DNA from: Acidobacteriota bacterium
Lineage (GTDB): Bacteria > Acidobacteriota > CAIWXX01
Assembly (NCBI GenBank): GCA_040755995.1
Contig: JBFMAF010000028.1
Coordinates: 1 to 64,000, forward strand
Length of the DNA stretch: 64,000 nucleotides
Reading direction: 5' to 3'
Shown here: positions 14,279-30,636 of the stretch, one piece after another
Position numbering within the stretch: the stretch's first letter is position 1
Layout of the letters: every line of letters begins with the position of its first letter
Translations under genes and position numbers: made by a program
Notes under the pieces: model-generated
Told to the model about the DNA's origin: nothing
What the model saw: the letters and a program-made list of their open reading frames with translations, nothing else
Database searches by the model: none

Positions 14279-15205
14279 ATGCATCTCTGCCTTCTGCCTC
14301 TCGTCGGGCTGCTTGCGGGCACCGGATGCGCGGCCTCGCGCGCCTACAGCCGTGGGATGCAGGCGCAGCGCGCAGGGCGCCATGCTGACGCGGCCGAGTG
14401 CTTGGAGCAAGCCGTGGAACATGATCCCGGCAATCCGAGCTACTCAAGGGCGTTGGCTGAGGCCCGAGCGCAGAGCGCGGAAGCCATGATCGCACGCGGC
14501 GAGGAGCTCGAGTTCAACGGCGAATATGCACTGGCAAATGGAATATACGAGGCGGCCTTCCGCCTCGATCCCCTCAACGATTATGCCCTGTTGAAGCGCC
14601 AACTCGTCGGCATTCGGCTCCGCAAGATGCATGAAGCTCAGCAGTCTGTCGCACGAACCGATCTACCGCATCCGACCACAGCGATCGCGGACATGGAGAT
14701 GGAACAGACTTCCGTGGCCAACGCCGAGCGGCCGAGACCCGTCGAACGATATTCGAGGGAGGCATATGGTGCTGCGCGTACGGCGGCGATTCGATTCGAG
14801 CCCTCCAAGATCGATCTCGCCGCCGGGAGACAGTTCCCAGTTGAGGTCATCGTCAGCACCCGAGTGTGGCCGTCCTCCGGCGCATTCGATGTCATCTACG
14901 ACGAGCGCGCGATGAGGGTCACGAGCGTGGAATCGGGGGCGATGGCCGGGTCGTACTCGGTGAGACAACCGGAGCCCGGAAGGATCTCATTCAAGTTCCT
15001 GCCGGAGGAGCGTTTTGATGGTGTCGCATGTCGACTGACGTTTGTGGCCGGTGCCCCTACGCTCGCCGGGCTGCATATCGACAGGGCGCGGCTGAAAGAC
15101 TACGGCGGGGAGGAGCTCGACGTGGCCACGTCACCTGCGAGCATCAACGTTCATCCCGCGGGCGCGGAGATGGCGTCCTCCGCAAGTGCGCCGAAGGTAC
15201 CATGA
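14279..15205 (+). CDS. Putative lipoprotein with TPR repeats and C-terminal cohesin-like domain
   Basis: Lipobox-like LLAGTGC; TPR-like EQAVEHDPGN and AAFRLDPLN; cohesin-like FDVIYDERAMRVTSVESG. Start could be 14228 or 14183. Confidence 0.7.
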   Translation: MHLCLLPLVGLLAGTGCAASRAYSRGMQAQRAGRHADAAECLEQAVEHDPGNPSYSRALAEARAQSAEAMIARGEELEFNGEYALANGIYEAAFRLDPLNDYALLKRQLVGIRLRKMHEAQQSVARTDLPHPTTAIADMEMEQTSVANAERPRPVERYSREAYGAARTAAIRFEPSKIDLAAGRQFPVEVIVSTRVWPSSGAFDVIYDERAMRVTSVESGAMAGSYSVRQPEPGRISFKFLPEERFDGVACRLTFVAGAPTLAGLHIDRARLKDYGGEELDVATSPASINVHPAGAEMASSASAPKVP

Positions 15206-15315
15206 CACCGCAGCCGAGAACCGTCCCCGTCGGCCGTGGTGATATCTCAGAGTCGTTCGGGAGAGCCTGCAGGGCCCATCCCATGACAAGTCCGAAAAGG
15301 CTTCATGGAGTCGTG

Positions 15316-18300
15316 ATGGCAATGAAAAGTATGCTGAGGGTTGGTTTGGCGGTCCTTTCGATCACATGTCTCTCCGGCGCTCCGGGGTTCGCCCAGAGCG
15401 GGGTTTTCGATCAGATCGGCATCAACGGGGAGCACGGGTTTCACGGGGCATTGGCCGAGGAGAATGTCGACTTGCTGACGGGTAACTTGACGCTCAGCTA
15501 CACAGACGTGTACTTGCCCGGACCGTTGGGCTTCGACCTGGCAATCCACCGAGCGTACAACTCCAAGGTCGTGCAAGACGTGAAGGTAGTGGACACGAAC
15601 GGCTCGTGGCAGACAGCGTACATCCTCCAGGGCGAGCCGCGATCATGGGTGGGGCTCGGCTGGACGCTGCACATGGGCCGTCTCCTCGACTGGAAGGACC
15701 CGATAGACTGCATCCCGGTCGGCGGCGGCTGTGTTGTGCCGCCTCCGAGTCCAACGATCGAGTTTCCGGACGGCCGCAGCGAGAAACCGGCGCTGTCGAG
15801 CGATGCCAACGGGACACAGATCTATCACACGCAGAGTCACTTGAAGCTCGTGAGGCAGAACGGTGTGTGGACGCTGTATTTCCAGGATGGCACCAGGTGG
15901 CTCTTCGGCAACCCCACGCAGATCCAGTATGAGAAGGGTCCGCGGGATGCCCTCTGCGTCGTCCAGATCGTGAATCCACAGGGGTATCACATCGATGCCA
16001 GCTACATCGACGGGAAGCCGTGCTTGCAGACGGTAAAGGACAGCATGCAGCGGGAGGTGGATTTCCTCGTGGACTCCACGGCGGCGCAGTTCCCCAAGCT
16101 GCAACGGGTGCAGATCAAGAACAGCGAAGGAGTCTGGGTAGAGTACACGTACACAGTGATCGAAGGGGATGGCGGGGTCGTAGGGACCGTCTACCTGCTG
16201 GATCGGTTCAAGCCACCTCTTCTGCCAGCACAGGTATTCCACTATGACCTGGCGCTCCCGACCAAGTGCCGTTTCCAGCTCACCGGAGTGGACACGGGTC
16301 TTGGCGGCCACATGGGCTACACGTACGAGGACCATCCGTTCGCCACGGGCGGCGCCGGCGGAAAGCAGGGTCCCTGGGGATCCCGGGTACTGTCGACGAA
16401 GACCCTTGACGACGGAACGGGACAGACTGCGAGCTGGACCTACACATATCCCAAGTTCGAGAGAGCTGGGGACGACACCGTCGAGATCAAGAAGCTCAAT
16501 GTACGGGGCGTGCCGGAGCTCAGCTATGCGAAGTACTCATGGCCGGGTGAGAACAACTTAGATCCGGTGATCAAGGCGAAGTGGTTCGTTGACCAGAGCT
16601 TCTCAGAGGGCTACTCGTGGAAGGCGCTTGAGATCCTCGACACCAACCTCCTCAACGGCTATCGCTGGGTCTATGTCTCGCTCATCGAGACGGTCACGAC
16701 CAGGACCCTTCCGAATCACGAGACGGTCAAGCAGTACTCATATAATGCGAAGACAGAGCAATACGGGCTCCCATCCTCTATCAAGCACAGCAGCGGGCAA
16801 AACACAGCGACGCACCGCTACACGGAGAAGCTCACCTACGCTTTCGAATCTGACAACGCATTGGAGAACGCCTACAAGCTCTCGTATGTGACGAATCATA
16901 CGACCTGGAACCCTTCCGAGACCCAGAAACAGAAGGAGACGATCACGGCCTACGAGTGGCCCGGCGGCGCCGTCAAGCTCGTAGACCGGCTCACGGATGG
17001 TGGGAACTACCTCACCTGGACGTATGAGAACCAGCTTGCGGATCCAAAGCTGATCACGATCACCACTGACCTGCCGGGCTCTGCCGGGAGACAGATTGCC
17101 AAGTACGATCACGGCGTCCAGTCGCAACTGAAGTGGGAGAACTCATTCGACGTTTTCACGCGCACGGTGAGCGCGCACGACAGCTCGATCCTGACTGAGA
17201 GGAATCAATACGGCGGGACGATGACCTTCACCTATGACAACCTGGGGCGAGTGGAGAAGGTGGCGATGCCCGCGGGATTCGCGGATATCGACCCGTCATG
17301 GGCAGCGGACGGCAAGAGCGTATCCATAGCGCGCGGATCAAGCCAGATTGTGAAGCTCTGGGACGGTCTCGGGCGTGATACCGGGTACACGGAGACAGAC
17401 ACCAAGAGCGGCACGACGCTCCACTACCGCAAGAAGCTGGACGAAGAAGGCCGGGTAACAGAGGAATCCAACGGGAGCCTCAGCGACGCCGATGTCTGGA
17501 AGTACAGCTACAAGCAGGCCGGCGACCTGTGGAAGACCGTGCCCCCACACGACGACGACGATCCCGTCGACCATACCACCGAGATCTCCTTCGCGGGCGA
17601 GGATAAGATGGTGATCGACGGGCGGAATCTGCAATGGACCTATCGGTACGACCACCTCACCGGTCTCATCACACGCACGACGGACCCCGCTCAGATGTCC
17701 ACCGAATTCACATACGATCCAATCGGGCGACTGACGAAGGCTGTGATCGGAGGCAGCCGGACCCACACTTACGACCACAACTGCATGGACCAGGTCACGA
17801 CGGAGACACATCCCGAGACGGGACGGATCGATTACACCTACAACCCTTCTACGGGTAACCTCGATACCAAGACGTGGGCCACCACGAGGACCAGCTACCA
17901 CTACAACTCCAGGAACCAGTTGACGGGACTGGATTCGGGCGATGATGCCATCTCCTATGGCTACAGCGACACCGATGGAACGCTTCGTTTGATCGAGAGC
18001 ACGACCAAAGGATGGAAGCGGACGATCACCGCATACAACCCGTTCGGATTGATCGAAACGGAGACGATCACCATCCCAGGGCTCGGCGCGAAGAAGCTGG
18101 AGTATCGTTACGATGCCAACAACACGCTGGCGAAGGTGATCTATCCAGATGGCACAACGGCGGATTACACCAATAACGGGTTCGATGCGCCAGAGCTGGT
18201 GAAGCTCAACGGCGGACGTCTCGTAGATTCGGTCGTCTACGGCGGGTACAAGCAGCCGGCGAGCATCGGCTTCGCCAACGGGACAGCTCTTACTGCGGAC

Positions 18301-21300
18301 TATCTCAACTCGGGCCATCTCTGGTGGACCAACCTGGCGCGGGGCGGTGAGGCGTACTACCACGCCCAGTATCGCTATGACGGCAACTACAACATAAAGA
18401 CCATCGAGGGCACCACGCCCAAGATCGATGTGGACTTCCAGTACGACTCTCGAAACCGGCTCAAGACCGCCAGCTACCGGCAGAACGACGGGCGTGTCAC
18501 CGGAATAACATACGACACTGACGATTTCGGCAACATCTGGCGGATCACCGAGAGCAGCACCACTGTAGCTTCCAAGGTAGCGTTCGAGCACACGTCCACC
18601 GGCAAGAACCAGCTCACCGGGTGGCCTTACGACGGCCGTGGCAATCTCAAGTCTGACGGGGTCTACCAGTACGTCTGGGACAACATGAACCGGTTGGCGG
18701 AGGTCCGGAACCTGAACGCGGAGGCAGGCATTGACATCTCGACGATCATGGCATCGATGGATGGCGACGCAGCGCCGGATGCGGGCACCGCGGAAGCGCC
18801 GCTTCTCGCGAGCTACCTGTACGACGATCGAGGCCTGCGATTGAAAACGGACAGGTCTCCGCAGGGCACGGTCCTGGTGGCCGAGATTGTGCTGGACTAC
18901 CCGAACGGCGGTCAGACGCTCTACGTGGGGAAGCAGAGCGAAATCCGGTGGCACTCCACGAACGTGGCCACGGTGCGGATCGAGCTGCTGATTTCGGTTG
19001 GCAACGCCACCCAGATCAAGGTGATCAAAGCGTCCTTCGATGCGAGCCTGGGAAAGTGCTCGTGGACGCCTGACACCCCCGGCGGCAAGTGCTACATCCG
19101 TATCAGCAACACGGCGGGGTCCGAGCAAGACACGAGCGACGGGCCGTTCGCAATCTTGCAGAAGAAGCTGACGGTGGACCAGCCGAATGGCGGTGAGCAC
19201 TGGGAGGCATTCACCGAACACAACATCGTCTGGAGGGCCGAGGGCGACTTCGGGACGCAGACCATGGCCATCAAGTACTCAACCAACAACGGCACTTCTT
19301 GGAAACCGGTAGAAGGAGCCAATGCTCTGGACCCGAAGCGCAAGTCGTTCCGCTGGACGGTGCCGAACGAGCCTTCGGAGCAGTGCCTGATCCGAATTCA
19401 CACTGGAAATGAGGACACCGAAGATCGGGGCGACGGCACCTTCACAATCGAGCCGTCGAATCGAGAGATCAAAGTCGTGTACCCCAACGGCGGCAGGGCG
19501 TCTCCTCACCTCCCAGACCAGGAAAGGCAGACGTTCAAGGTAGGCGACAAGGTCACGATCACCTGGGAGCTGACGGGGCACTTCGTAACCGGGAAGGGGC
19601 TGAAAGTTTCCCTTGTCGACGAGAGCACCAATGCGCCCACGGTGGTGACCATAGCACAGGTAGGCTATGTGACCTCCTGCCAGTGGACCGTCAACGACCG
19701 CCCCGGCAGCGTGTTCAGAATCCGCGTGGAGGACCTTGCCACCGGTGTCAAGGACGAGAGCGACGAGCACTTCCGCATCGTAGCGGCCCCCGCGACTCTC
19801 AAGGTGACCAAGCCCGCCGGGGGAGAGCTGCTGGGTGTCGGCAGCAAGTACAGGATCGAGTGGGAGGCCACCAGCGTCTCGCAGTGCCAGAACGTGAGGA
19901 TCGACTACATCAGGAACCTGCCGGATCACGAGATCGACGTGCACGAGATCGTCCCCTCGATCGAAAACAGCGGGCACTATCTGTGGGAGGTGCCGCCGGT
20001 GCCCGAGGGGCTTCCCCAGGAAGGCTGGCGCATTCGGGTTGCCGATCCGCGGGACATGGACCCGGAGGCCAAGAGTGGGCCGTTTTCGATCGTGCCGCCG
20101 CAGATGGCGCTGAAGGTTGAATGGCCGAATGGCAAGAACGACGGCCTCACGATCGGCACGAAGGTGACGATCAAGTGGAACCCCGGCGACACAACGCGAA
20201 TTGAGAACGTCAAGGTCTCGCTGAGTCGCACAGGCAACTCGCCTTACTCGGAGTCGTTGCATGAAGGGCACGAGTCGGTCGCCAACGACGGTGAGCTTCC
20301 CTGGATTGTCACTGGGCCCGCATCGACGGACTGCCGGATCGAGATCAGGGACGCCGACGGCGTCACTGCTGACACCTCGGACGCGAAGTTCCCGATCAAC
20401 GATGGCTTCACGATCAAGAAGCCGGTGGGAGGCGATGTGCTGAGGATCGGGAAGAGTTACACGATCAAGTGGAGCCCGCGAGACATGCCAAAGAACGTCA
20501 AGATCCAGATCAAGCGCGACGGTGGAGACTGGAAACACATCGACCCTAAGAATACGACCTACACGAACGAGGGAAGTCTCAACTGGATCGTGTCGGAGCC
20601 GGAGGCGGGCGAGTGCTATCTGCGTGTGAGCGACGCGTCCAACATGAAGTTTTGCGGCGAGACGAAGGAGCCCTTCTCGATCCGGCCGAGCATAACGGTG
20701 ACCTCGCCGAACGGCGGCGAGCAGCTCAAGGTGGGGACGACGGCGACTATCGCATGGACAACGGGCGGTAACGTGCCCAAGGTGAACATTGACATTTCGC
20801 GCAACAACGGGCAGAGTTGGAGCCGGATCAAGGCGGGGCTGACGAACACCGGAACCTTGCCGTGGCCGGTTGTTACTCCGACATCGACCAAGTGCCTGAT
20901 TCGGGTGAGCGACACCGACAAGGATCCGTGGGACGAGAGCGACAACACGTTCAGCATAGTCAAGATCGTGACCGGCGCTCGAGGAACTGGGACCGGATTT
21001 CAAGTACCCATCGGTGAAGAACAAGAGGGCGAGGCGTTGATGGGTGGTATCGGGGAAGGTGAGATGGCGCTACCGCCAGAAGACGCGGCTCCCGACGCAT
21101 ACGTCTTGAGGCCCGGAGGCGACGAGCCGCAGGAGACGGATGGCTGGGTCTATGTGCGCGATGAAGAGGGGCTGCCCGACTACGAATATCAAGTTCCGGC
21201 GAGCGACGGAGCCTGGGACGATTCAGTCGACTACCCGTACGACGACGAGCCTGAGTACGTGCCACAGACGCAGCCGGGCGGAGAACCGGCGGGGACCGGG

Positions 21301-22311
21301 GATGGCGGCGGTGGCGGCGTCCCGTCTCCCACGCCTGGCGCCGAGATCACCTACTACATCTACTCGTTCGACGGCAAGCTGATGGCGGAGTACGACTCGG
21401 ACGGCTACTGCAATCGCGACTACATCTACGCCGGCAGCCGCATGCTAGCCGAGTGGCGCCCCAAGACCGCCCAGAAGTTCTACTACATGCAGGACCAGAT
21501 CAACTCGACCCGCATGGTGACCAACGGCTCCGGCGACAGAATCTACTCCGCCGCCTACGATCCTTATGGCGGCCCCCAGAAGGTCTGGATCGACACCTAT
21601 TCCCCCGCCCTCGGATTCTCCGGCAAGGAACGCGACAAGGACACCGGCGCAGACTACTTCGGCGCTCGATGGTTCGCACATGGGCAGTATCGGTGGATCA
21701 GCACCGATCCGGTGATCGCGAGAGACATGGCCATCGTCAGTCCTCAGCTCTGGAACATGTACTCATACTGTTGGAACAACCCTGTGGTGGTTGTCGATCC
21801 TGACGGCCGATTTGCATGGATTGCCGTGATAATTGCGGTTGGATACACCTTGCTGAGTGATTCACAGCCGGCCAACGCACCGCCGACGGCAGAGCAGCTA
21901 GTTGCTTCTCATCCTGAGAACGTCTTCGGACATTCGATGATAGGCGCTGCCTTGGGTCTCGCGGCTGACGCGCTATTGCCATCGCACGGAAGTGCAGGTG
22001 CCATTGCCACCGAACTCGAAAGCCTTGCTGCGTCTAATGGCCCAATGACTGAGGTCGTTACGAGTCTCTCACGCGCACCGGAAGCCGGAAGGGCTCTCTC
22101 TGTGGCTACGGGTGAGGGTGCAAAACAACTAGCTATGCAGGCCGGTCCTGGTCGGCAACTGTTCACCGGGAAAATCCCGACAGCCTTGATCAATAAGCTC
22201 CAGACGATGAAGTTGGCTTCCAGGTCAGTAACGATGATGAACGGCGAAGTGGCAACCGAGATCAGGTTCACTGCGGATGCGACGAAGTACATCATTCCGT
22301 TCTTGCATTAA
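15316..22311 (+). CDS. Secreted Rhs/YD-repeat polymorphic toxin with seven inserted Ig-like domains and C-terminal toxin tip
   Basis: GGAG RBS and signal peptide MKSMLRVGLAVLSITCLSGAPGFA; ENVDLLTGNL..LPGPLGFDLAIHRAYNS; many YD repeats; core FSGKERDKDTGADYFGARW..NNPVVVVDPDG. ORF-track start 15028 overlaps the upstream gene and is probably too early. Confidence 0.95.
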   Translation: MAMKSMLRVGLAVLSITCLSGAPGFAQSGVFDQIGINGEHGFHGALAEENVDLLTGNLTLSYTDVYLPGPLGFDLAIHRAYNSKVVQDVKVVDTNGSWQTAYILQGEPRSWVGLGWTLHMGRLLDWKDPIDCIPVGGGCVVPPPSPTIEFPDGRSEKPALSSDANGTQIYHTQSHLKLVRQNGVWTLYFQDGTRWLFGNPTQIQYEKGPRDALCVVQIVNPQGYHIDASYIDGKPCLQTVKDSMQREVDFLVDSTAAQFPKLQRVQIKNSEGVWVEYTYTVIEGDGGVVGTVYLLDRFKPPLLPAQVFHYDLALPTKCRFQLTGVDTGLGGHMGYTYEDHPFATGGAGGKQGPWGSRVLSTKTLDDGTGQTASWTYTYPKFERAGDDTVEIKKLNVRGVPELSYAKYSWPGENNLDPVIKAKWFVDQSFSEGYSWKALEILDTNLLNGYRWVYVSLIETVTTRTLPNHETVKQYSYNAKTEQYGLPSSIKHSSGQNTATHRYTEKLTYAFESDNALENAYKLSYVTNHTTWNPSETQKQKETITAYEWPGGAVKLVDRLTDGGNYLTWTYENQLADPKLITITTDLPGSAGRQIAKYDHGVQSQLKWENSFDVFTRTVSAHDSSILTERNQYGGTMTFTYDNLGRVEKVAMPAGFADIDPSWAADGKSVSIARGSSQIVKLWDGLGRDTGYTETDTKSGTTLHYRKKLDEEGRVTEESNGSLSDADVWKYSYKQAGDLWKTVPPHDDDDPVDHTTEISFAGEDKMVIDGRNLQWTYRYDHLTGLITRTTDPAQMSTEFTYDPIGRLTKAVIGGSRTHTYDHNCMDQVTTETHPETGRIDYTYNPSTGNLDTKTWATTRTSYHYNSRNQLTGLDSGDDAISYGYSDTDGTLRLIESTTKGWKRTITAYNPFGLIETETITIPGLGAKKLEYRYDANNTLAKVIYPDGTTADYTNNGFDAPELVKLNGGRLVDSVVYGGYKQPASIGFANGTALTADYLNSGHLWWTNLARGGEAYYHAQYRYDGNYNIKTIEGTTPKIDVDFQYDSRNRLKTASYRQNDGRVTGITYDTDDFGNIWRITESSTTVASKVAFEHTSTGKNQLTGWPYDGRGNLKSDGVYQYVWDNMNRLAEVRNLNAEAGIDISTIMASMDGDAAPDAGTAEAPLLASYLYDDRGLRLKTDRSPQGTVLVAEIVLDYPNGGQTLYVGKQSEIRWHSTNVATVRIELLISVGNATQIKVIKASFDASLGKCSWTPDTPGGKCYIRISNTAGSEQDTSDGPFAILQKKLTVDQPNGGEHWEAFTEHNIVWRAEGDFGTQTMAIKYSTNNGTSWKPVEGANALDPKRKSFRWTVPNEPSEQCLIRIHTGNEDTEDRGDGTFTIEPSNREIKVVYPNGGRASPHLPDQERQTFKVGDKVTITWELTGHFVTGKGLKVSLVDESTNAPTVVTIAQVGYVTSCQWTVNDRPGSVFRIRVEDLATGVKDESDEHFRIVAAPATLKVTKPAGGELLGVGSKYRIEWEATSVSQCQNVRIDYIRNLPDHEIDVHEIVPSIENSGHYLWEVPPVPEGLPQEGWRIRVADPRDMDPEAKSGPFSIVPPQMALKVEWPNGKNDGLTIGTKVTIKWNPGDTTRIENVKVSLSRTGNSPYSESLHEGHESVANDGELPWIVTGPASTDCRIEIRDADGVTADTSDAKFPINDGFTIKKPVGGDVLRIGKSYTIKWSPRDMPKNVKIQIKRDGGDWKHIDPKNTTYTNEGSLNWIVSEPEAGECYLRVSDASNMKFCGETKEPFSIRPSITVTSPNGGEQLKVGTTATIAWTTGGNVPKVNIDISRNNGQSWSRIKAGLTNTGTLPWPVVTPTSTKCLIRVSDTDKDPWDESDNTFSIVKIVTGARGTGTGFQVPIGEEQEGEALMGGIGEGEMALPPEDAAPDAYVLRPGGDEPQETDGWVYVRDEEGLPDYEYQVPASDGAWDDSVDYPYDDEPEYVPQTQPGGEPAGTGDGGGGGVPSPTPGAEITYYIYSFDGKLMAEYDSDGYCNRDYIYAGSRMLAEWRPKTAQKFYYMQDQINSTRMVTNGSGDRIYSAAYDPYGGPQKVWIDTYSPALGFSGKERDKDTGADYFGARWFAHGQYRWISTDPVIARDMAIVSPQLWNMYSYCWNNPVVVVDPDGRFAWIAVIIAVGYTLLSDSQPANAPPTAEQLVASHPENVFGHSMIGAALGLAADALLPSHGSAGAIATELESLAASNGPMTEVVTSLSRAPEAGRALSVATGEGAKQLAMQAGPGRQLFTGKIPTALINKLQTMKLASRSVTMMNGEVATEIRFTADATKYIIPFLH

Positions 22312-22324
22312 GGGGAATCTGGCT

Positions 22325-22624
22325 ATGATCAAATGGTGCTGTCCGGGTTTTGAAGATTGCTTTCGCGAGGCCGACAACAGAGGTTTTGGGGTCTTCGTCG
22401 AATGGAAGCCCAAGCTGAAGCCCCTTTTTGTTCTTCAAGCCAGGGCGATTGACAGAGATGCCGTGCCTCCTCTCTCGTACAAAGGTCCCATCTCCCTTGT
22501 TCTGCAGACTGGGCTAACCTATTGCCCCTGGTGTGGGAGGAAGCTGGAGGAATGGTATGAGGACCACTTGCAGGAACTCACCAGGAACGACTTATCCATT
22601 CCATTAGGAGAGGAATCAGGCTGA
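22325..22624 (+). CDS. Probable immunity protein (WCC...YCPWCG, DUF6980-like)
   Basis: Small lower-GC ORF 13 bp after the Rhs stop, AGGGG RBS, Cys motifs. Confidence 0.75.
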   Translation: MIKWCCPGFEDCFREADNRGFGVFVEWKPKLKPLFVLQARAIDRDAVPPLSYKGPISLVLQTGLTYCPWCGRKLEEWYEDHLQELTRNDLSIPLGEESG

Positions 22625-22766
22625 GGCGGCGGCATCTCCCGTTCGGATGTTAGATTGATCGCCGACCGTTGCCGCGTCTGAGGAAGTGGGCTCAGGCGCG
22701 GCGAGGACTACGCCCTCAGACTCCGCTCAACGACAGGAAGCTGCCCGTCTTTGCCGAGCATCCTCA

Positions 22767-23120
22767 CTACCGGAGTGGGAGATAGAGAACCTTCCCCTCC
22801 AAGTCGGTTTCGAGACTGCATTCAGCCAGGAGGAGGATATCTTCGATCGGCTGGCCGGGAAGAGAGCCGCTCTTGATCTGGATCACGCCTGGCATCAAGA
22901 GACCATTGCGGACCCGATCGTATGCGTGCGCCGTGAAGGTGGCGGCATCGTGGGTGAGAAAGACGCGTCCTTCCCGTGCGGCCCATTCGAGTAGCGTTGG
23001 ATCATCAGCACCCAAAAGGTCGGTATCCTGAACGCGCACGATGTCGATTTCGGGATTGCGGCGGCGGACGCCACGCACGATGTCGTTGTCAAAGTTCTCG
23101 TCGGCTGCGAAGCGGAGCAC
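22767..23120 (-). CDS. DUF5615 family PIN-like toxin
   Basis: FAADENF..GADDPTLLEWAAREGRVFLTHD. Confidence 0.9.
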   Translation of the reverse strand: MLRFAADENFDNDIVRGVRRRNPEIDIVRVQDTDLLGADDPTLLEWAAREGRVFLTHDAATFTAHAYDRVRNGLLMPGVIQIKSGSLPGQPIEDILLLAECSLETDLEGKVLYLPLR

Positions 23121-23124
23121 GCTG

Positions 23125-23454
23125 CTATCGTTGCGCAGCGCGGCGCGCTAGGAGGCGTTCACGTAAGCCCGACGGATTGAACCGGGCTTCGTTCTCTTTC
23201 TGGATCGCGTCGGCCTGCCGTTCGCGCTCGTGCAGGTAGGTATCGACTTCGCTGCGATGATGGAGGTAGTAGCCGATCACCGCATAGACGTCGGCCAACT
23301 GGAGTGTCGGGTAGCGTTGTGCGATCTCTTCAGGGGTCGCGCCTGCGTTGAAGACCGAGATGACCGTGTCGAGGGTCACGCGTGTGCCGGCGACGCGTAT
23401 CACTCCGGCTTCCTCGCGAAGGGGAACGACCTCTGCTGCGATGGTCACGATCAA
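23125..23454 (-). CDS. DUF433 antitoxin
   Basis: IRVAGTRVTLDTVI..GATPEEIAQRYPTLQLADVYAVIGYY. Confidence 0.9.
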   Translation of the reverse strand: MIVTIAAEVVPLREEAGVIRVAGTRVTLDTVISVFNAGATPEEIAQRYPTLQLADVYAVIGYYLHHRSEVDTYLHERERQADAIQKENEARFNPSGLRERLLARRAAQR

Positions 23455-23472
23455 TGCCTCCTTTCGATGACG

Positions 23473-23880
23473 CTATCCGCCCTGTAGGACCTCTTCCATC
23501 TTGTGCTTGGCGATGACGCCGTCGATGAGGAGGATGATCGCCTCGCGGCTCTGTCGCGAGAGTCTTTCAGCTTCGAGGAAACGCTCATAGAGGCGTAGAT
23601 CGTTGATGCCCGGCGCCGTGGGCGCCTTGTCCTGCTCTCGGCCCATCAGGAGAGCGTCGGCGGAGATACGCAGTACCTCGGCCAGGGCCACGGCGGTCTC
23701 GAACGCCGGCAGAACCTGGCCTCGTTCGTACTTCGAGATCTGCATCACGTTCGCATCGACCATGTCAGCGAGCTGTTGCTGAGAAAGCCCGCACTCTTTA
23801 CGCGCCCGTCGCAGACGGAATCCAAAGCCCCTGGTGATCGTGCTCACGCTTCGTGCTCTCTGCTCTTTCATCAGGACCAT
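23473..23880 (-). CDS. XRE-family HTH repressor
   Basis: LRRARKECGLSQQQLA..ISKYERG..P..LAEVLRISADALL. Confidence 0.9.
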   Translation of the reverse strand: MVLMKEQRARSVSTITRGFGFRLRRARKECGLSQQQLADMVDANVMQISKYERGQVLPAFETAVALAEVLRISADALLMGREQDKAPTAPGINDLRLYERFLEAERLSRQSREAIILLIDGVIAKHKMEEVLQGG

Positions 23881-23925
23881 TCTACAGAGGACGCCTCTGA
23901 AGAACGGTCCCGACGACCTTGATAG

Positions 23926-23959
23926 TTGACATTATAGTCTTCGGAGCTTATATTGTCAA
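23926..23959. promoter_or_regulatory. Overlapping divergent sigma70 promoters (primase rightward, XRE leftward)
   Basis: + strand TTGACA(23926)-17-TATATT(23949); - strand TTGACA(23959)-17-TATAAT(23936). Confidence 0.8.
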
Positions 23960-24022
23960 TGGTGTCATGAGCATATGTCCTATTTCCCTCTTGACAGGGT
24001 TTTCTGAGGAGGTCGATTTTCG

Positions 24023-26824
24023 ATGATTTCGCCGGAAGTGATCGCGGATATCCGGGCGAGGAACGACCTGGTTGCTTTCATTGAATCTGCGGGGGTGCAG
24101 CTTCGTCGGCGCGGGGCGGATTACGTCGGCCTTTGTCCTTGGCACCCCGATACGAAGCCCTCACTCGTGGTGAGCCCGCGGAAGCAGTACTGGTGCTGTC
24201 ACGGGGCGTGTTCGGCAGGTGGGAAGCGGGTTGGCGGAGATGTGATTGAGTTTGCGCGGCGGCTGTGGGGCTTGGGGTTCCCCGAGACAGTGGCACGTCT
24301 TAGAAACGGCAGCGCTCCTCCGGAGGAGGCAGCGCCCGTAGCAGCGAAAGAAGAAGCGATTCCCAGGCTGGCGTTGCTCGAGCGCCTGGCGAGCTACTAC
24401 CAGAAGAACCTTCCGCGATCGGAGGAGGCGCAGAAATACCTGGCGTCGCGCGGGATTGCGCGGCCGGAGCTTCTCGCGGCGCTGCAGGTGGGCTTCTCGG
24501 ATGGATCGCTGACCGAGAGGACGTCTGCGGGATCGGCGGTACGGAAGGAGCTTGTGGCGGCAGGGCTCATCACGGATGCCGGTGCTGAGTTTTTCTTTCG
24601 CTGCATCGTGCTGCCGTTGAAGGACCTCGCCGGCAACGTCGTGAACATGTATGGCCGTGCGATCGATGCTGACCGCCATCTCTATCTGCCCGGGCCGCGA
24701 CGAGGGCTCGTGAACGCGGCGTGCGCGGCGACCGCCAGCGACATCGTCATCACCGAGTCCGTGATCGACGCGATGTCGTTCCTGGAGGCGGGAATTCCGA
24801 ACGTCGTTCCGATCTACGGCGTCAACGGCTGGACCGAGGATCACGACGAGCTGCTCGACAAGCACCGCATCCGCCGCGTCGTCATCGCGCTCGACTCCGA
24901 TGAGGCTGGCCAGAAGGCCTCGGCGGCGATCGCCGGGAAGCTCGCCGCTCGGGGCATCGATGTGCGCAACGTCGTGCTTGCCGCGAAGGACCCCAACGAG
25001 CTGCTCGTGCGCGAGGGCGCAGCCAGGTTCAGCGAGACATGGCACAACCTGGTTGCATTGCCCTCTTCTCTTTCGCTGCCAGGGGCTGCAGCGCCCGTGC
25101 CAATGACCACCGAACGGAGCGATTCCTCCGCCGCAGAAGCAGCGAAAGGAAAAGACACAGAGGAGCAGACTTCCCCGGCCGAATCTGCGTTGCCATCTCC
25201 ACTGGCAAGCAGCGCTCCTTCGGAGGGTGACACGCCCCCGGCGGCGCCCGCTAACTGCGGCAATGGCCAACCCGCAGCGCTTGCAGCGAAAGAAGAAAGC
25301 ATGAGCGGCGCGGTGACTCTTCTGCGCGATCCGGCAGGGGGCTACTTGATGTCTGCCGGGGCACGCATGTACCGCGTGAGAGGGCTGACCACACTCGGCG
25401 GGGATCATCTCAAGGTCACGCTGCGGGTCGAGAAGGAGCTGCGCTTCCATGTCGACACGTTCGATCTCTACTCGGCGCGATCGCGGCGTAGCTTCGTCGA
25501 GGATGTGTGCGAGGTATTCGGAGAGCAGGACCAGGCGGCACTTCACCGCGAGCTCGATCGGCTGATCGACGCGCTCGATCGCGAGCGGCTCTCGCTCAAG
25601 GACCGGGGCCGCGGGCAGGCGCCGAAGGCTCTGATGACGCCGGCTGAGCGCGAGGAAGCGATGGCGTTTCTCCTGGCGCCGGATCTCGTGGGGAAGCTGC
25701 GCGAAGACTTCGCGGCAGTCGGGTGCGTCGGCGAGGAGACGGCGATGCTGATCGCCTACCTTGCGGCCCTCTCGCGGAAACTGCCCTGGCCGCTGGCAGT
25801 GCTCTTCTGCGCGCGCTCGGGGGCCGGCAAGTCGAACCTGCAGCTATTGATCGCAGAGCTCATCCCACCGGAAGATCTCATCATGCACACGCGCGTCACT
25901 CAGTACGCGCTCTTCTACAAGGACGAAAACGCCCTCGTCCACAAGCTCCTTGCGATCGACGAAGAGGAAGGCGCTTCAGAGGCGGCCTACGCGCTGCGCA
26001 GCCTCCAGAGCGCCGGGTACCTCTCGATAACTGCCACGTGCACGGATCCGCAGACCGGCAAGCAGCGCGCTATCGACTACCGGGTGAACGGCCCCACAGC
26101 CATCTTCCTCACGACGGCGCATCCGGAGGCACTGGACTACGAGACCAGAAACCGGTTCGTGATCCTGACGGTGGATGAGTCGAAGGAGCAGACGCAGAGG
26201 ATTCTGGAAAAGCAGCGATGGGCGGAGACGATGGAAGGTCTCGTCTCAAGCGAGCGGCGCCTGTCGGTTCTCCGCCGCCATCACAACGCGCAGCGATTGC
26301 TGCAGCCGATCGAGGTCGTCAACCCGCACGCAGAGAGGCTCGCCTACCCTTGCGACCGCCTCATCCTCCGCCGCGAACAGAAGAAGTACCTGACGCTCAT
26401 CAAGGCGATCGCGCTGCTGCATCAGCACCAGCGGCCGAAGAAGAAGGTCGAGGCAACCGAGTACATCGAAGTGAGCCGGAAGGATGTGGAGATCGCCGGC
26501 GAGCTCGCGCCGCTGATCCTGCGGCGGAATCTGGACGAGCTGGCTCCGCCCACCCGCCAACTCCTCATCGAGATCCGCAAGCTTGTCTGCGCGAAGATGA
26601 AGGAGCAGGGCCTCTCACAGCATCACGCGCTCGTCCACCGCGACGAGATCCAGAAGGCTGCAGGCTACTCCGCCTGGCACGTGAGGACCTACATCCCGCA
26701 GCTCATCGAATTCGAGTATCTGCGGGCGGTGCATGGACGCAACGGGAAGCGGTACTTCTACGAGCTTCTCTGGGACGGAAAGGAAGAAGATCCCGCCGCC
26801 GGAATGAAAAAGTGTCCTCAGTAG
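24023..26824 (+). CDS. CHC2 zinc finger / TOPRIM DNA primase fused to P-loop helicase-like domain
   Basis: GLCPWHPDTKPS..CHGAC; ITESVIDAMS, ALDSDEAG, KDPNE; Walker A ARSGAGKS and Walker B LLAIDEE. Confidence 0.9.
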   Translation: MISPEVIADIRARNDLVAFIESAGVQLRRRGADYVGLCPWHPDTKPSLVVSPRKQYWCCHGACSAGGKRVGGDVIEFARRLWGLGFPETVARLRNGSAPPEEAAPVAAKEEAIPRLALLERLASYYQKNLPRSEEAQKYLASRGIARPELLAALQVGFSDGSLTERTSAGSAVRKELVAAGLITDAGAEFFFRCIVLPLKDLAGNVVNMYGRAIDADRHLYLPGPRRGLVNAACAATASDIVITESVIDAMSFLEAGIPNVVPIYGVNGWTEDHDELLDKHRIRRVVIALDSDEAGQKASAAIAGKLAARGIDVRNVVLAAKDPNELLVREGAARFSETWHNLVALPSSLSLPGAAAPVPMTTERSDSSAAEAAKGKDTEEQTSPAESALPSPLASSAPSEGDTPPAAPANCGNGQPAALAAKEESMSGAVTLLRDPAGGYLMSAGARMYRVRGLTTLGGDHLKVTLRVEKELRFHVDTFDLYSARSRRSFVEDVCEVFGEQDQAALHRELDRLIDALDRERLSLKDRGRGQAPKALMTPAEREEAMAFLLAPDLVGKLREDFAAVGCVGEETAMLIAYLAALSRKLPWPLAVLFCARSGAGKSNLQLLIAELIPPEDLIMHTRVTQYALFYKDENALVHKLLAIDEEEGASEAAYALRSLQSAGYLSITATCTDPQTGKQRAIDYRVNGPTAIFLTTAHPEALDYETRNRFVILTVDESKEQTQRILEKQRWAETMEGLVSSERRLSVLRRHHNAQRLLQPIEVVNPHAERLAYPCDRLILRREQKKYLTLIKAIALLHQHQRPKKKVEATEYIEVSRKDVEIAGELAPLILRRNLDELAPPTRQLLIEIRKLVCAKMKEQGLSQHHALVHRDEIQKAAGYSAWHVRTYIPQLIEFEYLRAVHGRNGKRYFYELLWDGKEEDPAAGMKKCPQ

Positions 26825-26831
26825 GTGACAC

Positions 26832-26876
26832 CTTGCGGAGCTTGCGGCGGCTTGTGAAACCTTGTGCACAAGGTTT
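26832..26876. repeat. CTTGYG repeats at about 10-bp spacing and a 20-bp perfect palindrome
   Basis: CTTGCG/CTTGTG at 26832, 26841, 26851, 26861; AAACCTTGTGCACAAGGTTT at 26857-26876. Confidence 0.7.
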
Positions 26877-27001
26877 TTGCCTCATAAACACCCGCGGCTC
26901 AGTCACTTAGAACCCTCGAGATCGACCTTGTGGGGTTTTTCGGGGAACGTACTCCCCCCCCTTGCGCGAACGCACTCCTCCCGGAGTGCAGGAGGTGACC
27001 A

Positions 27002-27952
27002 ATGGATGATCACCAACGCCTCAAGATGGATCTGCTGCGGGCACGCTTCGTTGAAGCGATGACGGCGTGGAACTGGAGCCCGCGCAGTGTCGTCAGCTAC
27101 GAGCAGAACGTGCGGTACTTCTTCGACTGGCTCGAGCGGGAGACCGAGATCGAGGATCTCGCGCGGGTGACGGCCGAGACGATGGTCTCGTATCAGACGG
27201 CGCTGCTTGCGGTGGAGAGGCCCGATGGAGGACGTCTTTCGGTAGGGACGCAACGGCATCGTCTCGGGGCGCTCAAGAGCTTCTTCGGCTATCTGTGGCG
27301 CGAGGGGAAGGTGCTGATGAATCCGGCTTCGCAAGTGGTGCTGCCGAAGAGGCGCAAGCAGCTTCCGCGGGCCAATCTCACGCCGAAGGAAGCGATCCGG
27401 CTTCTGGAAGCGGTCGGTACCTCGACACCGCTCGCGATGCGCGACCGCGCGATTCTGGAACTGCTCTATGCAACCGGCATCAGGAACGCCGAGATTCGCG
27501 CGCTGACGCTTGCGGATGTTTGCGAGACCACTCTCACGATCCGCGCCGGCAAGGGCGGCAAGGATCGCGTCGTCCCGATGGGGAGGGTGGCAGAAGCGGC
27601 CCTCTCTGACTACCTGCAGGAGGCCCGGCCCAAGCTGGCGATGAAGGACGGAGTGCTCAACATCTTCCTCACCAAGCACGGCCTGCCGCTCGACTCTTAC
27701 GCCGTGATCAACGCCGTCAGGCGCGCGGTGCGGGCTGCCGGCATCAAGAAGGCGATCCACCCACATTCCTTGAGGCATGCCTGCGCGACTCACATGCTCC
27801 GCGGCGGAGCCGACATCCGCTACATCCAGAAGCTGCTCGGGCACGCCTCGCTCCAGACCACACAGCTCTACACGCTCGTCGAGATCAGCGATCTCAAGGC
27901 CGTGCACCGGTTGTATCACCCGCGCGAACGCCGCCGTGGTCTCACTCGCTGA
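27002..27952 (+). CDS. XerC/XerD-like tyrosine recombinase
   Basis: RDRAILELLYATGIR, GKGGKDRVVP, HSLRHACATHML, LLGHASLQTTQLYT. Confidence 0.95.
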   Translation: MDDHQRLKMDLLRARFVEAMTAWNWSPRSVVSYEQNVRYFFDWLERETEIEDLARVTAETMVSYQTALLAVERPDGGRLSVGTQRHRLGALKSFFGYLWREGKVLMNPASQVVLPKRRKQLPRANLTPKEAIRLLEAVGTSTPLAMRDRAILELLYATGIRNAEIRALTLADVCETTLTIRAGKGGKDRVVPMGRVAEAALSDYLQEARPKLAMKDGVLNIFLTKHGLPLDSYAVINAVRRAVRAAGIKKAIHPHSLRHACATHMLRGGADIRYIQKLLGHASLQTTQLYTLVEISDLKAVHRLYHPRERRRGLTR

Positions 27953-28886
27953 TCATCTCGATCAGTACCTGCACGCGTGCGGGGCACAGGGACTGAGCCA
28001 GGGGACAATCGTCTACCGCCGTCTCTATCTGAGGCACTTCGTGAACTGGCTGCTTGAGCGGAGTGTGGATGACATCCGGCGCGTGAGCAGTGAGACGATC
28101 GCCGAGTACGCACGCGAGCTGCGCGCGCACCGGTATCGCCGGCAGAATACCGCCCCGTGGCGCCCGCTCACGCCGCGCACGAGAGCTCAGCGGCTGGCAA
28201 TCGTGCACCGGTTCTTCCAGTGGCTATGCCGCGGGCGTGTGCTGCTTGCGGATCCCACCAGCGATCTGGCGGGCAAGCCGCTTCCACAGCCGCTCCCCGT
28301 GCGCGTACCGTCCGAATCCGAGATGCTGCAAATACTCGCTGCACCGGATGCGAGCACCGCAATCGGCAGACGCAATCGCGCGATCCTGGAGCTGCTCTAC
28401 TCGACCGGCATGCGCCGGGCCGAGCTTGAGGCGCTCGACTTGAGCGACCTCGATCTCGCATCAGGCACCGTTCTCATCCGATGCGGCAAGGGCGGCCGCT
28501 CGCGCGTCGTGCCGATCGGCGACACAGCCGCCGCCGCCCTCCTCGACTACATCGAGAACGCCCGCCCGTGCTTCCTCCGCAGGCCTGGCGTCACCGCGCT
28601 GTTTGTCGCAGCCAACACCGGCCATCGTCTCTCGAAGAAGGGAATGTGGCAGATGGTCCGCGACGTCGCTCGGGCCGCCGGCTTCCACCACCGCCTCTCC
28701 CCCCACCAGTTTCGACATGCCTGTGGCACTCACATGCTACGCGCCGGCGCCAACCTCCGCCACGTCCAGCAACTCCTCGGCCATTCCAAGATCGAGTCGA
28801 CCGAAATCTACACGCACGTTGCCATCCGCGACCTGGCTGACGTCCACGCCCGCACCCACCCCCGTTGCCGCATGCACCGCCCGTAG
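27936..28886 (+). CDS. Second XerC/XerD-like tyrosine recombinase
   Basis: RNRAILELLYSTGMR, GKGGRSRVVP, HQFRHACGTHML, LLGHSKIESTEIYT; GTG start overlapping the upstream gene. Confidence 0.93.
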   Translation: MVSLADHLDQYLHACGAQGLSQGTIVYRRLYLRHFVNWLLERSVDDIRRVSSETIAEYARELRAHRYRRQNTAPWRPLTPRTRAQRLAIVHRFFQWLCRGRVLLADPTSDLAGKPLPQPLPVRVPSESEMLQILAAPDASTAIGRRNRAILELLYSTGMRRAELEALDLSDLDLASGTVLIRCGKGGRSRVVPIGDTAAAALLDYIENARPCFLRRPGVTALFVAANTGHRLSKKGMWQMVRDVARAAGFHHRLSPHQFRHACGTHMLRAGANLRHVQQLLGHSKIESTEIYTHVAIRDLADVHARTHPRCRMHRP

Positions 28887-29431
28887 CAGCGAAAGAAGAA
28901 GCACACAGCAGCGCTTGCCGCGCCCTCCTGGCCGGCATATACTCGCCCTGCTACCCAGAGACACTGAGATGCTCCAGAGGCGCCAACACGACCTCCAGCC
29001 AGTGCCTCTCTCTTTCGCTGCCAGCGCTGCTGCCGGCTGTGGCACGCCAGTGGGGATACGCGATGAAGCCATGGGATGCTCTCAAGCAGCGCTGCTCGCC
29101 AGTGAAGCAGGGGAACTCGGTTCTGTGGGACATGGCGCTGAAGTCTGCTCCGCTGTGCTTTTTCCTTTCGCTGCTTCTGCGGCGGAGCGATGGCGCCGTT
29201 CAGGCGCGATTGGCTGCGTTGGCGTGGCCGCCGATGACGCAGTGCGTCGCGACGAAGCGGGGATGTGTACTAGCGCGACGGCCTCCAGAAACCACCCAAA
29301 TCCCGTTTTTCAACTTCATGCGTTTTCAAGCACATCCGCTGTCAGCGTGGGCTTTTCTTTCGCTGCGGGCGCGCTGCAAGTTGCTGATTCTACGCGCGCG
29401 GCAGGGCGCGGAAGTTGCCTACAACATCTAA

Positions 29432-30048
29432 TCGGCGCCCGATGGTTCGCAAACGCGCAGTACAGGTGGATCAGCGTCGATCCCGTGATGAACCGCGACG
29501 AAGCGATTGCGAGTCCACAGCTTTGGAACCTGTACGCATACGTCAGTGACAATCCGATTACTTTCCTAGATCCTGATGGCAGGAAGATGCGGGCGCAGGT
29601 GATCATCACGGGGGACAAGTCGTCGGTGTTTGAATTCCTCACCATTCACACGGCGATCCGCATCTACGTCGACGAGAACCCCGAATTCCCTGACCGTGTA
29701 TTCAGCCACGGCGGAAATGCGCCTGGCGTGATGACGTTGAGCACGTATCTTGGGAGGCAGAAGGCCTACACGACAAAGCTCTACTCGCTCAAACTTACCG
29801 AAGATCAGATCAAGAGACTCCATGCGCGGCTCATCGTGTCCTATCCGCTCGGACGGGATGCCTATTTCGATGAGCTATGGAACAACTGTACGCAGCAGGC
29901 CTACAACAACATCATGGCAGCCACCGACTCCGACTCTACCTCTGGATCGGCGCTGCTCTTCCTGTCGGTGCAGACGCTTGACGAGCTATCGGATGCGGCG
30001 CTTGTAGAAGAGGAACCAGACGAGGTGATCGAGCCCGCTCCGAAGTAG
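29432..30048 (+). pseudogene. Orphan Rhs core fragment plus C-terminal tip (papain-like His/Cys motifs)
   Basis: GARWFANAQYRWISVDPV..SPQLWNLYAYVSDNPITFLDPDG, 33/49 aa identical to the main Rhs core; tip has IHTAI and NNCT. Confidence 0.85.
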
Positions 30049-30064
30049 TGAGGTTCCGACGACC

Positions 30065-30520
30065 ATGATTCACATGAGTCCAAAGCGCTTCCGCGCAATA
30101 GTATGGGTTCTGGCCGTCACCGCCTGTCTCGTCTTGATAGGCCACGGGGCTCGTATCATTCAGCAACTGCGCAGGGCGGGCAAGGCCAAAGTGACCTCCG
30201 CCCGCATGCACAACGTCGTTGTCGAGTGCGAGGTACGAATAGAGGGGCCACCTACTCTGAGTCAAGATGGCATCCTGATAGACTGCGCCCATGTGTTCCC
30301 CAAGCTTAGAAAGGAGGAACTCCGCGACGCGTGGGGTCATCCGATTTTCATCGCACGCGAGAACGCGGGGGATAGTCATTTGCTTGTGATTGCCTTTGGA
30401 CCATCCTGGAGACCTGAGTTGGAAGGCCGTAGCGTCACCCTGGCTGAAGCACGCCAGACGGCCACGTTCATCCTTGGCAAGACGGGCTGGCTTATGGCTC
30501 CAGAATGGATGCCGCCCTAG
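30065..30520 (+). CDS. Membrane-anchored hypothetical protein, candidate immunity for the orphan tip
   Basis: Directly follows the orphan tip; N-terminal TM helix; DAWGHP motif. Confidence 0.6.
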   Translation: MIHMSPKRFRAIVWVLAVTACLVLIGHGARIIQQLRRAGKAKVTSARMHNVVVECEVRIEGPPTLSQDGILIDCAHVFPKLRKEELRDAWGHPIFIARENAGDSHLLVIAFGPSWRPELEGRSVTLAEARQTATFILGKTGWLMAPEWMPP

Positions 30521-30636
30521 TCCGCCTGGGCCACCCAGCAATGGCGGTCAAACGCAATGTCCGGAGGCGCCGGATGGCAGACGATCCGATAGAATGGTCG
30601 TCGCCGACAAGAGTGCAATCGTAGACAGGAGGGCAG

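Follow-up and report, generated by a model that had tools for sequence, protein, structure and literature searches.

The locus described here lies on contig JBFMAF010000028.1 of an Acidobacteriota bacterium (GTDB lineage Bacteria; Acidobacteriota; CAIWXX01; GenBank assembly GCA_040755995.1), of which positions 1 to 64,000 of the forward strand were analysed; this whole 64,000-nucleotide stretch is called the window below. It holds an rhs gene whose variable C-terminal domain, or tip, and candidate immunity gene are followed by a toxin-antitoxin (TA) pair, a repressor, a predicted primase-helicase and two Xer-like tyrosine recombinases, and then by a second, truncated Rhs core carrying an unrelated tip. 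Our subject is the block between the starts of the two cores, which is likely an integrated element that recombined into the core codons of the rhs gene. An initial annotation, made from the letters of the window, had listed the same genes, and all of them are present according to the open reading frame (ORF) listing and the Pfam and NCBIfam searches. The element parts in this copy are all intact. The features, in window coordinates, are the following.

15028..21658, plus strand: host portion of the Rhs gene, made up of the body and the first (5′) half of the core; it carries RHS_repeat, DUF6531 and Kre9_KNH domains, and TIGR03696 starts at amino acid (aa) 2177
21659..21810, plus strand: left core-repeat copy (putative attL), codons F-GARWF...DPDGR, in frame with the Rhs body
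21811..22311, plus strand: tip 1, variable C-terminal domain of 166 aa directly after DPDGR (presumed cargo toxin)
22325..22624, plus strand: candidate immunity gene 1, 99 aa, an ORF directly 3′ of tip 1 whose function is suggested by its position only
22767..23120, minus strand: DUF5615/PIN-like toxin of the TA pair (PF18480, E 2.4e-10), with an 88% identical homolog on contig C70 of genome G002
23125..23454, minus strand: DUF433 antitoxin-like partner (PF04255, E 2.4e-13)
23473..23880, minus strand: XRE/RstR-like repressor (HTH_3, E 3e-14), divergent from the primase gene
24023..26824, plus strand: CHC2 zinc finger, DNAG_N and Toprim primase fused to a predicted MCM-like AAA+ helicase and winged helix, 933 aa (Pfam, NCBIfam dnaG domain, AF2 model)
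24341..25294, no strand: cluster of five GCAGCGAAAGAA repeats within the primase gene, iteron-like and of putative function
27002..27952, plus strand: tyrosine recombinase 1, Xer-like (Phage_integrase PF00589, E 9e-42)
27936..28886, plus strand: tyrosine recombinase 2, Xer-like (Phage_integrase PF00589, E 6e-43; longest ORF from 27777)
28886..29431, no strand: right-end region of 545 non-coding bases; it contains four more of the 12-mers, a primase-internal segment copied in inverse orientation and, at 29312-29431, a conserved terminus that ends ...CTACAACATCTAAT
29432..29583, plus strand: right core-repeat copy (putative attR), start of the orphan fragment; direct repeat, TIGR03696
29584..30048, plus strand: tip 2 (presumed displaced original toxin domain), not similar to tip 1
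30065..30520, plus strand: candidate immunity gene 2, 151 aa, an ORF directly 3′ of tip 2

The Rhs ORF runs from 15028 to 22311 (2427 aa). Its RHS repeats are matched by PF05593 in the Pfam search and its core by the NCBIfam model TIGR03696, Rhs_assc_core (aa 2177-2260, 63.4 bits for a cutoff of 32.5), while the orphan core and tip ORF (29434-30048) covers positions 34-75 of the 76 of this profile with 38.1 bits. Neither tip nor either of the small ORFs behind them matched a family in Pfam, NCBIfam or PHROGs, the two tips showed no similarity to each other at E≤10, and no Rfam family reached its gathering score over 21000-31000. DUF5615 and DUF433 are adjacent small genes of known toxin and antitoxin families (PF18480 and PF04255), and we predict that they form a type II TA pair. 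The repressor scored 73.9 bits with the NCBIfam model NF041951 phage_RstR, under the cutoff of 80; used as a tblastn query, it found an opposite-strand match upstream of the primase in many of the homologous loci surveyed below.

The two recombinases are 39% identical and retain the R, K, HxxR, H and Y catalytic residues in an alignment judged by eye; for the second, the GTG at 27936 is a likelier start than 27777. We call them Xer-like, and not XerC or XerD, because their scores fall under the curated equivalog cutoffs: 252 and 214 bits with the XerC model TIGR02224 (cutoff 335), 246 and 238 bits with the XerD model TIGR02225 (cutoff 330). The integron integrase model TIGR02249 gave 124 and 105 bits (cutoff 265). 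The product of 24023..26824 is a predicted primase-helicase, since its Walker A motif, GAGKS, is invariant in the 24 homologs that were aligned and the modelled fold of its C-terminal half is MCM-like. The AF2 model of this half (pLDDT 80.5) has the shape of an MCM-like AAA+ helicase with a winged helix behind it, and in VIA-align the top eleven entries were MCM ATPase domains (Z 16.5-20.5), the best being 4r7z, PfMCM-AAA (Z 20.5, 266 residues aligned). Compared with the sequences of solved structures, the same half gave nothing below E 0.5.

The 12-mer GCAGCGAAAGAA has nine matches in the window, all within the element, for 0.27 expected, and none of 100 shuffles reached nine. Besides the five in the primase gene, the remaining four lie in the right-end region (28886-29366), which also holds an inverted copy of about 130 nt (29084-29214) of a segment internal to the primase gene (25099-25220). 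The motif and the inverted segment recur at like places in relatives, and they may mark a putative origin or accessory binding sites. We had considered whether 29004-29273 might be a defunct piece of primase left by an earlier insertion in inverse orientation; this was ruled out, as the segment and the 12-mers recur in the right ends of relatives.

The strongest direct repeat in 20500-31500 pairs 21659-21768 with 29432-29541 at 76% identity. Over the whole core (21659-21810 and 29432-29583) 106 of 152 nt and 34 of 50 aa are identical, close to the 33 of 49 aa counted in the initial annotation, whose coordinates were right within 3 nt; no exact run is longer than 12 nt. Just before the two copies, the adjoining 60 nt are unrelated (15/60 identical). 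When the right junction was aligned to the rest of the element it scored 21 at 21659 and at most 11 elsewhere, including 21811-29300, so that the core repeat is the only one to bracket the 7,773-bp block from 21659 to 29431. Element ends between 22624 and 22767 had been named beforehand as a finding that would speak against integration inside the core; the only junction-like sequence sits at 21659.

The right end of this block is conserved as a joint. The terminal 120 nt or so before 29432 recur on contigs C51 and C24 of the window's own genome (G000), on C69, C70 and C116 of G002, which is a different genus of the same family, and on a contig of a public metagenome-assembled genome (L042). 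Each such segment ends in ...CTACAnCATCTAAT and is followed by an Rhs core fragment at the identical codon, the element end abutting the R-Y-Y codons (R-W-F in the window). The core types joined to it differ (GARWF, RARYYD, RNRYYD), and so do the tips. Distant subfamilies from other phyla share CTAYAGnAYCTAAT, then 7-8 nt and AGRTAYTAY, the last being the R-Y-Y codons. The joint thus written holds short inverted arms, AYCTA-N8-TAGRT, which would be the layout expected for the core site of a tyrosine recombinase. In one sequencing run (X1), a contig bearing a 92-94% relative of 24188-29438 terminates at 29438.

Several other joints deserve description. On contig C70 of G002 (L030, 2480-2560) the repressor promoter region is joined straight to a core fragment at the usual element-end nucleotide, and this looks like a deletion of the primase, recombinases and end made at that site. 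Two bins of one sample (L100 and L099) have the left part of an element in common, and one bin shows the recombinase and the following core in the opposite orientation, a hint that inversions take place at such sites. In some subfamilies (L116, 626-1333; the right junctions of L040, L041 and L043; L193, 12853-13893) the element end provides an ATG and a Shine-Dalgarno-like sequence, and the core and tip behind it form an ORF of their own, with a leader that reads MQLQ... in one subfamily and is lipoprotein-signal-like in the cdiA type. Since the element end supplies these signals, an unfused or displaced tip behind it may be translated.

We ran a core-end profile, built from the fetched loci, on the 7.7-Mb genome of the window and obtained 20 core matches, about eight of them with long open frames upstream. 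Four of the long-frame cores are followed by the element or by remnants of it (C16:127235, C24:194567, C28:21667, which is the window's, and C36:275620). The right-end prefix stands before 6 of the 20 cores, and five of these six sit at contig ends. The contigs C8 (end), C35 (end), C42 (start), C43 (end), C51 (start), C16 (end) and C15 (end) stop inside element copies or at joints between right end and core. Contig ends at the right-end prefix fit several copies having broken the assembly, and the genome probably holds five or more such copies.

More than 2,100 homologs of the primase were found at E ≤ 1e-20; 24 were aligned for a locus search, and 157 loci (78 from genomes, 79 from metagenomes) were surveyed out of 558 + 571 homolog-bearing stretches. 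A primase block of over 600 nt was present in 156 of them, and the phyla represented include Acidobacteriota, Pseudomonadota, Elusimicrobia, Planctomycetota, Actinomycetota, Gemmatimonadota, Nitrospirota and others. The initial annotation had asked whether Rhs cores flank primase homologs on both sides. Counting cores on the primase strand within 6 kb, 33 of the 41 loci whose upstream DNA reaches at least 3.5 kb have one upstream, at a median distance of 2.4 kb, and 31 of the 40 loci whose downstream DNA reaches at least 4 kb have one downstream, at a median of 2.8 kb. Both sides have one in 9 of the 16 loci where both could be evaluated, and 168 of 170 core matches are on the primase strand. 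The outcome agrees with the interpretation in the initial annotation. Cores downstream of a primase are fragments in 91 of 93 cases, with an in-frame stop at a median of 39 aa upstream, and among the 75 cores without a primase upstream, 22 have an open frame reaching 300 aa or more upstream, 27 are truncated where the contig begins and the other 26 are short. After the primase, the 40 downstream-evaluable loci have one recombinase (21 loci), two (17), three (1) or four (1). Elements in tandem are seen in L041, L076, L081, L099/L103 and L102. Six homologous elements (L085, L113, L161, L172, L181 and L185) have no Rhs core detected with the profile, and these may target other toxin families or other sites.

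These data bear on the idea that the repeat is an ordinary orphan arrangement of the RecA type and the element an unrelated passenger in a recombination-prone rhs locus. Orphan tips are indeed known at Rhs loci (PMC2935791, in the part of the article at hand). However, the two cores share an exact run of only 12 nt, the joint keeps to a single codon next to a conserved end of the element, and the association extends over 157 loci and many phyla with nearly all cores on the same strand. We regard this explanation as very improbable.

Which of the two tips arrived with the element is a separate question. The element could have landed between an rhs-immunity pair and a pre-existing orphan, or could carry tip 2 as its cargo, tip 1 then being the host's own. 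Orphan modules free of any element do exist in the paralogous rhs locus of contig C3, and the cyclic gene order of a single copy is by itself no guide to which tip was the newcomer. Against this, no junction-like site exists in 21811-24030, near-identical right ends within one genome are joined to different core types, and relatives in Enterobacter and Escherichia coli point the other way.

In Enterobacter sp. JBIWA003, plasmid pJBIWA003_2 (NZ_CP074172.1) contains a repeat, 100% identical over at least 5,693 nt, whose start coincides exactly with the VENN codons in a gene of the cdiA type. The order, in which CT stands for the C-terminal toxin part and imm for its immunity gene, is cdiA...VENN-CT_A-imm_A, a helix-turn-helix (HTH) gene, primase, XerC, TA and leader, then VENN-CT_A-imm_A again and so on to a second leader, and then VENN-CT_B. 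Two identical units therefore open with the same CT and the last CT differs; two complete identical copies result only if the unit runs from the junction through CT_A to the element end. Relatives located in cdiA genes were seen in L193 (NZ_CP074172.1) at 5371 and 13056, in L194 at 5343-6203 and in L197 (E. coli C11). A VENN pre-toxin fragment that lacks its N-terminal part lies 3′ of the element in E. coli C11. The family hence extends beyond Rhs, as these cdiA relatives in Enterobacter and E. coli show.

In E. coli, DNA relatives of the pJBIWA003_2 primase occur in 60 of 5,426 complete genomes, and the species provides a pair of alleles. Strain EC9 has rhs-tip1-imm1, two tandem units of SymE, HTH, primase and XerC, each followed by a core-tip-imm module, and then ybgA. 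The last module together with 71 nt of element end was used as a query and is present in 100 of the 5,426 genomes; among the 30 matches listed, 13 cover the whole query, 13 begin only at position 72, the first base of the core repeat, and 4 are partial. The position-72 matches are 99.6-100% identical (11 of the 13 at 100%) and lie under an annotated full-length RHS gene. One of these strains, WP3-S18-ESBL-09, reads ybfA, a DcrB-like gene, RHS, an immunity gene, SymE and ybgA, with no primase or xerC; its immunity protein and SymE have the accessions found in EC9. The two strains are 99.2% identical up to the junction and 99.3% after it, and the 13.3-kb insert of EC9 consists of two tandem elements, with a 71-nt core overlap. 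The tip displaced behind the EC9 elements is the tip fused to the rhs body in WP3-S18-ESBL-09, the break falls exactly at the core repeat, and the four junction sequences are consistent with a set of attB, attL, attP-like and attR. The element-free allele of WP3-S18-ESBL-09 (L196, 7815-8144) still has SymE after the immunity gene, and in occupied alleles SymE is the element gene beside the immunity gene; this SymE may be the relic of an older insertion.

Two finished records, pJBIWA003_2 and EC9, thus settle for these relatives that the left tip is cargo and the right tip displaced, in the sense proposed by the initial annotation. That annotation had also called for an empty allele in which the Rhs body is fused to the right-hand tip, and this was found in the E. 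coli relatives and not for the window locus. A host origin of tip 1 is accordingly disfavoured already, as is the passenger explanation, and we consider it quite unlikely.

Free circular forms are suggested by exact terminal overlaps of 63-139 nt in 9 of the 157 surveyed contigs, with lengths of 7.2-13.3 kb. In eight of the nine a core fragment, part of a core-tip module, lies in the primase orientation between the last recombinase gene and the primase gene, and in one of them, L116, a repressor match by tblastn lies there too. What precedes the core in L116 and L119 is the element end instead of Rhs sequence, which is how an attP should look. A complete circular replicon is at hand in Lonsdalea populi N-5-1, where plasmid NZ_CP072857.1 (11,289 bp) carries two modules of core fragment, nuclease tip and immunity gene, with HTH, primase, XerC and a RelE/DinJ TA pair. 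This plasmid (L191) comprises one full element unit and one decayed unit, each with a core fragment fused to a nuclease tip. The deletion on contig C70 of G002 had suggested to us that only the part from primase to right end (24003-29431) is mobile; this was ruled out, since the circular-looking contigs include the core-tip module and L116 also the repressor match. For the circle predicted at the window locus, the support comes from these relatives. Four sequencing runs, none of which matched half of the sequence words and none recorded as RNA, were examined as contigs and showed neither a 29431-21659 joint nor a 21658-29432 joint, the parts that they leave uncovered being uninformative.

It could also be proposed that the recombinases and the right end are a resident, integron-like platform that shuffles core-tip-immunity cassettes, the mobility of the whole element being secondary or lost. 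Cassette arrays with a right-end remnant before each cassette (G002 contigs C69, C70 and C116; L044; L054) would suit such a platform, as would the C70 deletion endpoint exactly at the junction and the XerC/D-type recombinases that Zhang et al. noted beside poly-immunity loci (PMC3482391, in the part available). But the integron integrase scores are far under the cutoff, and whole units including the primase appear as circular-looking contigs, as a plasmid and as exact tandems. We find the platform unlikely as a replacement for an integrating element; it is compatible with one as an added activity.

Taken together, we are fairly confident that 21659-29431 is an integrated member of a widespread family of primase-helicase/tyrosine-recombinase elements, which likely entered by site-specific recombination in the Rhs core codons, with tip 1 and immunity gene 1 as cargo and tip 2 and immunity gene 2 displaced. 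The claim of integration inside the core coding sequence, made in the initial annotation, is upheld mostly by relatives, through the survey, the conserved junction and the E. coli alleles, and the mobility of the window copy itself is suggested by homology and anatomy. In the scheme that we propose, attP would be the joint that the free circle forms between the conserved right end (...CTACAnCATCTAAT) and the 3′ core fragment, with tip and immunity gene, which the element itself carries. The two Xer-like recombinases would pair it with the xAR-W/Y-F/Y codons of a resident rhs gene (attB; xARWF in the window), and the crossover would fuse the resident Rhs shell in frame to the incoming tip, leaving the old core, tip and immunity gene behind the element as an orphan. 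Replication of the excised circle would fall to the primase-MCM helicase acting with the repeated 12-mers. The XRE repressor would regulate the primase and recombinase genes transcribed away from it and gate excision and replication, and the DUF5615/DUF433 pair would stabilise the element. No transfer genes were seen in the element. We infer the activity of the window copy, the exact crossover, the replication origin and the role of each recombinase.

A number of observations weigh against this interpretation. The paralogous C3 locus has the order rhs-immunity-orphan-FG-GAP without any element, and orphans hence also arise or persist without one. A 19-kb DNA search of 41 genomes (40 relatives and the window's own) found no orthologous rhs locus, and pieces of the element only in G002; the two other genomes of the family are different genera and lack this rhs locus. 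For the window element itself, no empty allele, circle junction or tandem copy was found, and the sequencing runs, available as contigs and not as raw reads, contain only the 92-94% relative of 24188-29438. Longer proteins bearing tip 2 were sought between 358 and 2000 aa, and the four matches were all to the core. The E. coli and Enterobacter relatives have one recombinase, about 35% primase identity and a junction at DPIGL or VENN, not at R-Y-Y. In the survey the profile found no core on the upstream side of 8 of the 41 loci that could be evaluated there, nor on the downstream side of 9 of 40; a core is also lacking in L181, one of the circular-looking contigs, and terminal overlaps can also be explained by perfect tandem repeats.

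Downstream of the orphan in the window lies a gene for an FG-GAP repeat protein (30637-32295), with an 83% identical paralog after the C3 rhs locus (G000:C3:146400-149852) and a weak TcdB_toxin_midN match (E 0.009).

How does this element compare with known systems? Koskiniemi and colleagues reportedly described Rhs C-terminal displacement and orphan tips in 2014. The displacement of old tips by incoming ones is established, and leads to a full-length rhs gene followed by modules of core fragment, tip and immunity gene; Jackson et al. (2009) called for an episomal circle, and no integrase was then known to go with Rhs (PMC2935791, in the part of the article at hand). What differs here from the displacement model is that the circle would have its own recombinases and replication module, and that the joint lies at a fixed codon with little flanking identity. 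Islands that target tRNA genes and P4-like satellites integrate with a tyrosine recombinase; their attP copies the 3′ end of the target, so that the gene stays intact, and short direct repeats flank them. The window element resembles them as a small element with a repressor, a primase-helicase, tyrosine recombinases and flanking direct repeats. In contrast to them, its target is a protein-coding motif of a polymorphic toxin, and the restored 3′ end is not a copy but a different, predicted toxin domain with its own candidate immunity gene. The fold search with the primase model also lists 5dgk, ‘SCCmec type IV Cch - active helicase’ (Z 10.6), and like SCCmec-type elements with Cch, the present one is integrative and encodes an MCM-like helicase. 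SCCmec elements use serine recombinases and the orfX/rlmH site, whereas the window element encodes tyrosine recombinases and a helicase fused to a DnaG-type primase, and its target is a toxin gene.

With integrons and recombinase-associated immunity arrays it shares a tyrosine recombinase beside arrays of toxin-fragment and immunity cassettes separated by repeats. Such arrays are said to have been described as rAID-1 by Ross et al. in 2019, and Martinkus et al. (Current Biology, 2026) reportedly describe Xer systems beside Rhs immunity arrays, possibly overlapping with the present element. Unlike integrons, it has no IntI-type integrase, its cassettes start within a coding motif and can form an in-frame fusion with the delivery gene, and a replication module is part of the unit. 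Integrase-like genes near rhs were observed in bee-gut bacteria and left open there (PMC5727410, as far as the accessible text goes). Similarly, Ruhe et al. (2016) reported integrase and transposase genes among cdiA orphan CT/cdiI modules and suggested site-specific recombination (PMC4927057, in the sections available). Like those cdiA orphans, element relatives occur in Enterobacter and E. coli cdiA genes; the account in those sections defines no element or site. In the open-access papers and preprints searched, we found no description of a primase-helicase/recombinase element with an attachment site in core codons. What appears to be new here is thus a site-specific integrative, replicative element whose target and cargo would be two halves of a polymorphic toxin gene, with which the work of Martinkus et al. 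may overlap.

In conclusion, we lean, if only somewhat, towards a broader view in which these elements form a cross-phylum class of small, self-replicating integrative elements that use conserved pre-toxin codons of polymorphic toxin genes (R-Y-Y-D or DPIGL in Rhs, VENN in CdiA) as attachment sites. Each insertion would re-arm the delivery protein in frame with the element's own toxin-immunity pair, and the class, which would be the long-postulated vehicle of C-terminal displacement, would spread through carriers killing element-free kin. The source of new tips of Rhs and contact-dependent inhibition (CDI) proteins has been an open point since the displacement model was put forward. If our view is correct, it would supply both a vehicle and an attachment site, made of the most conserved codons of the toxin core, and would render the displacement idea testable in E. 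coli, where complete genomes hold occupied and empty alleles. The attachment logic, by which a recombinase would exchange a protein's C-terminal domain in frame, could be of interest to builders of genetic tools. If correct, our view would also explain the recombinase genes in orphan arrays, the assembly breaks at such loci and the toxin-immunity pairs that cross phyla.

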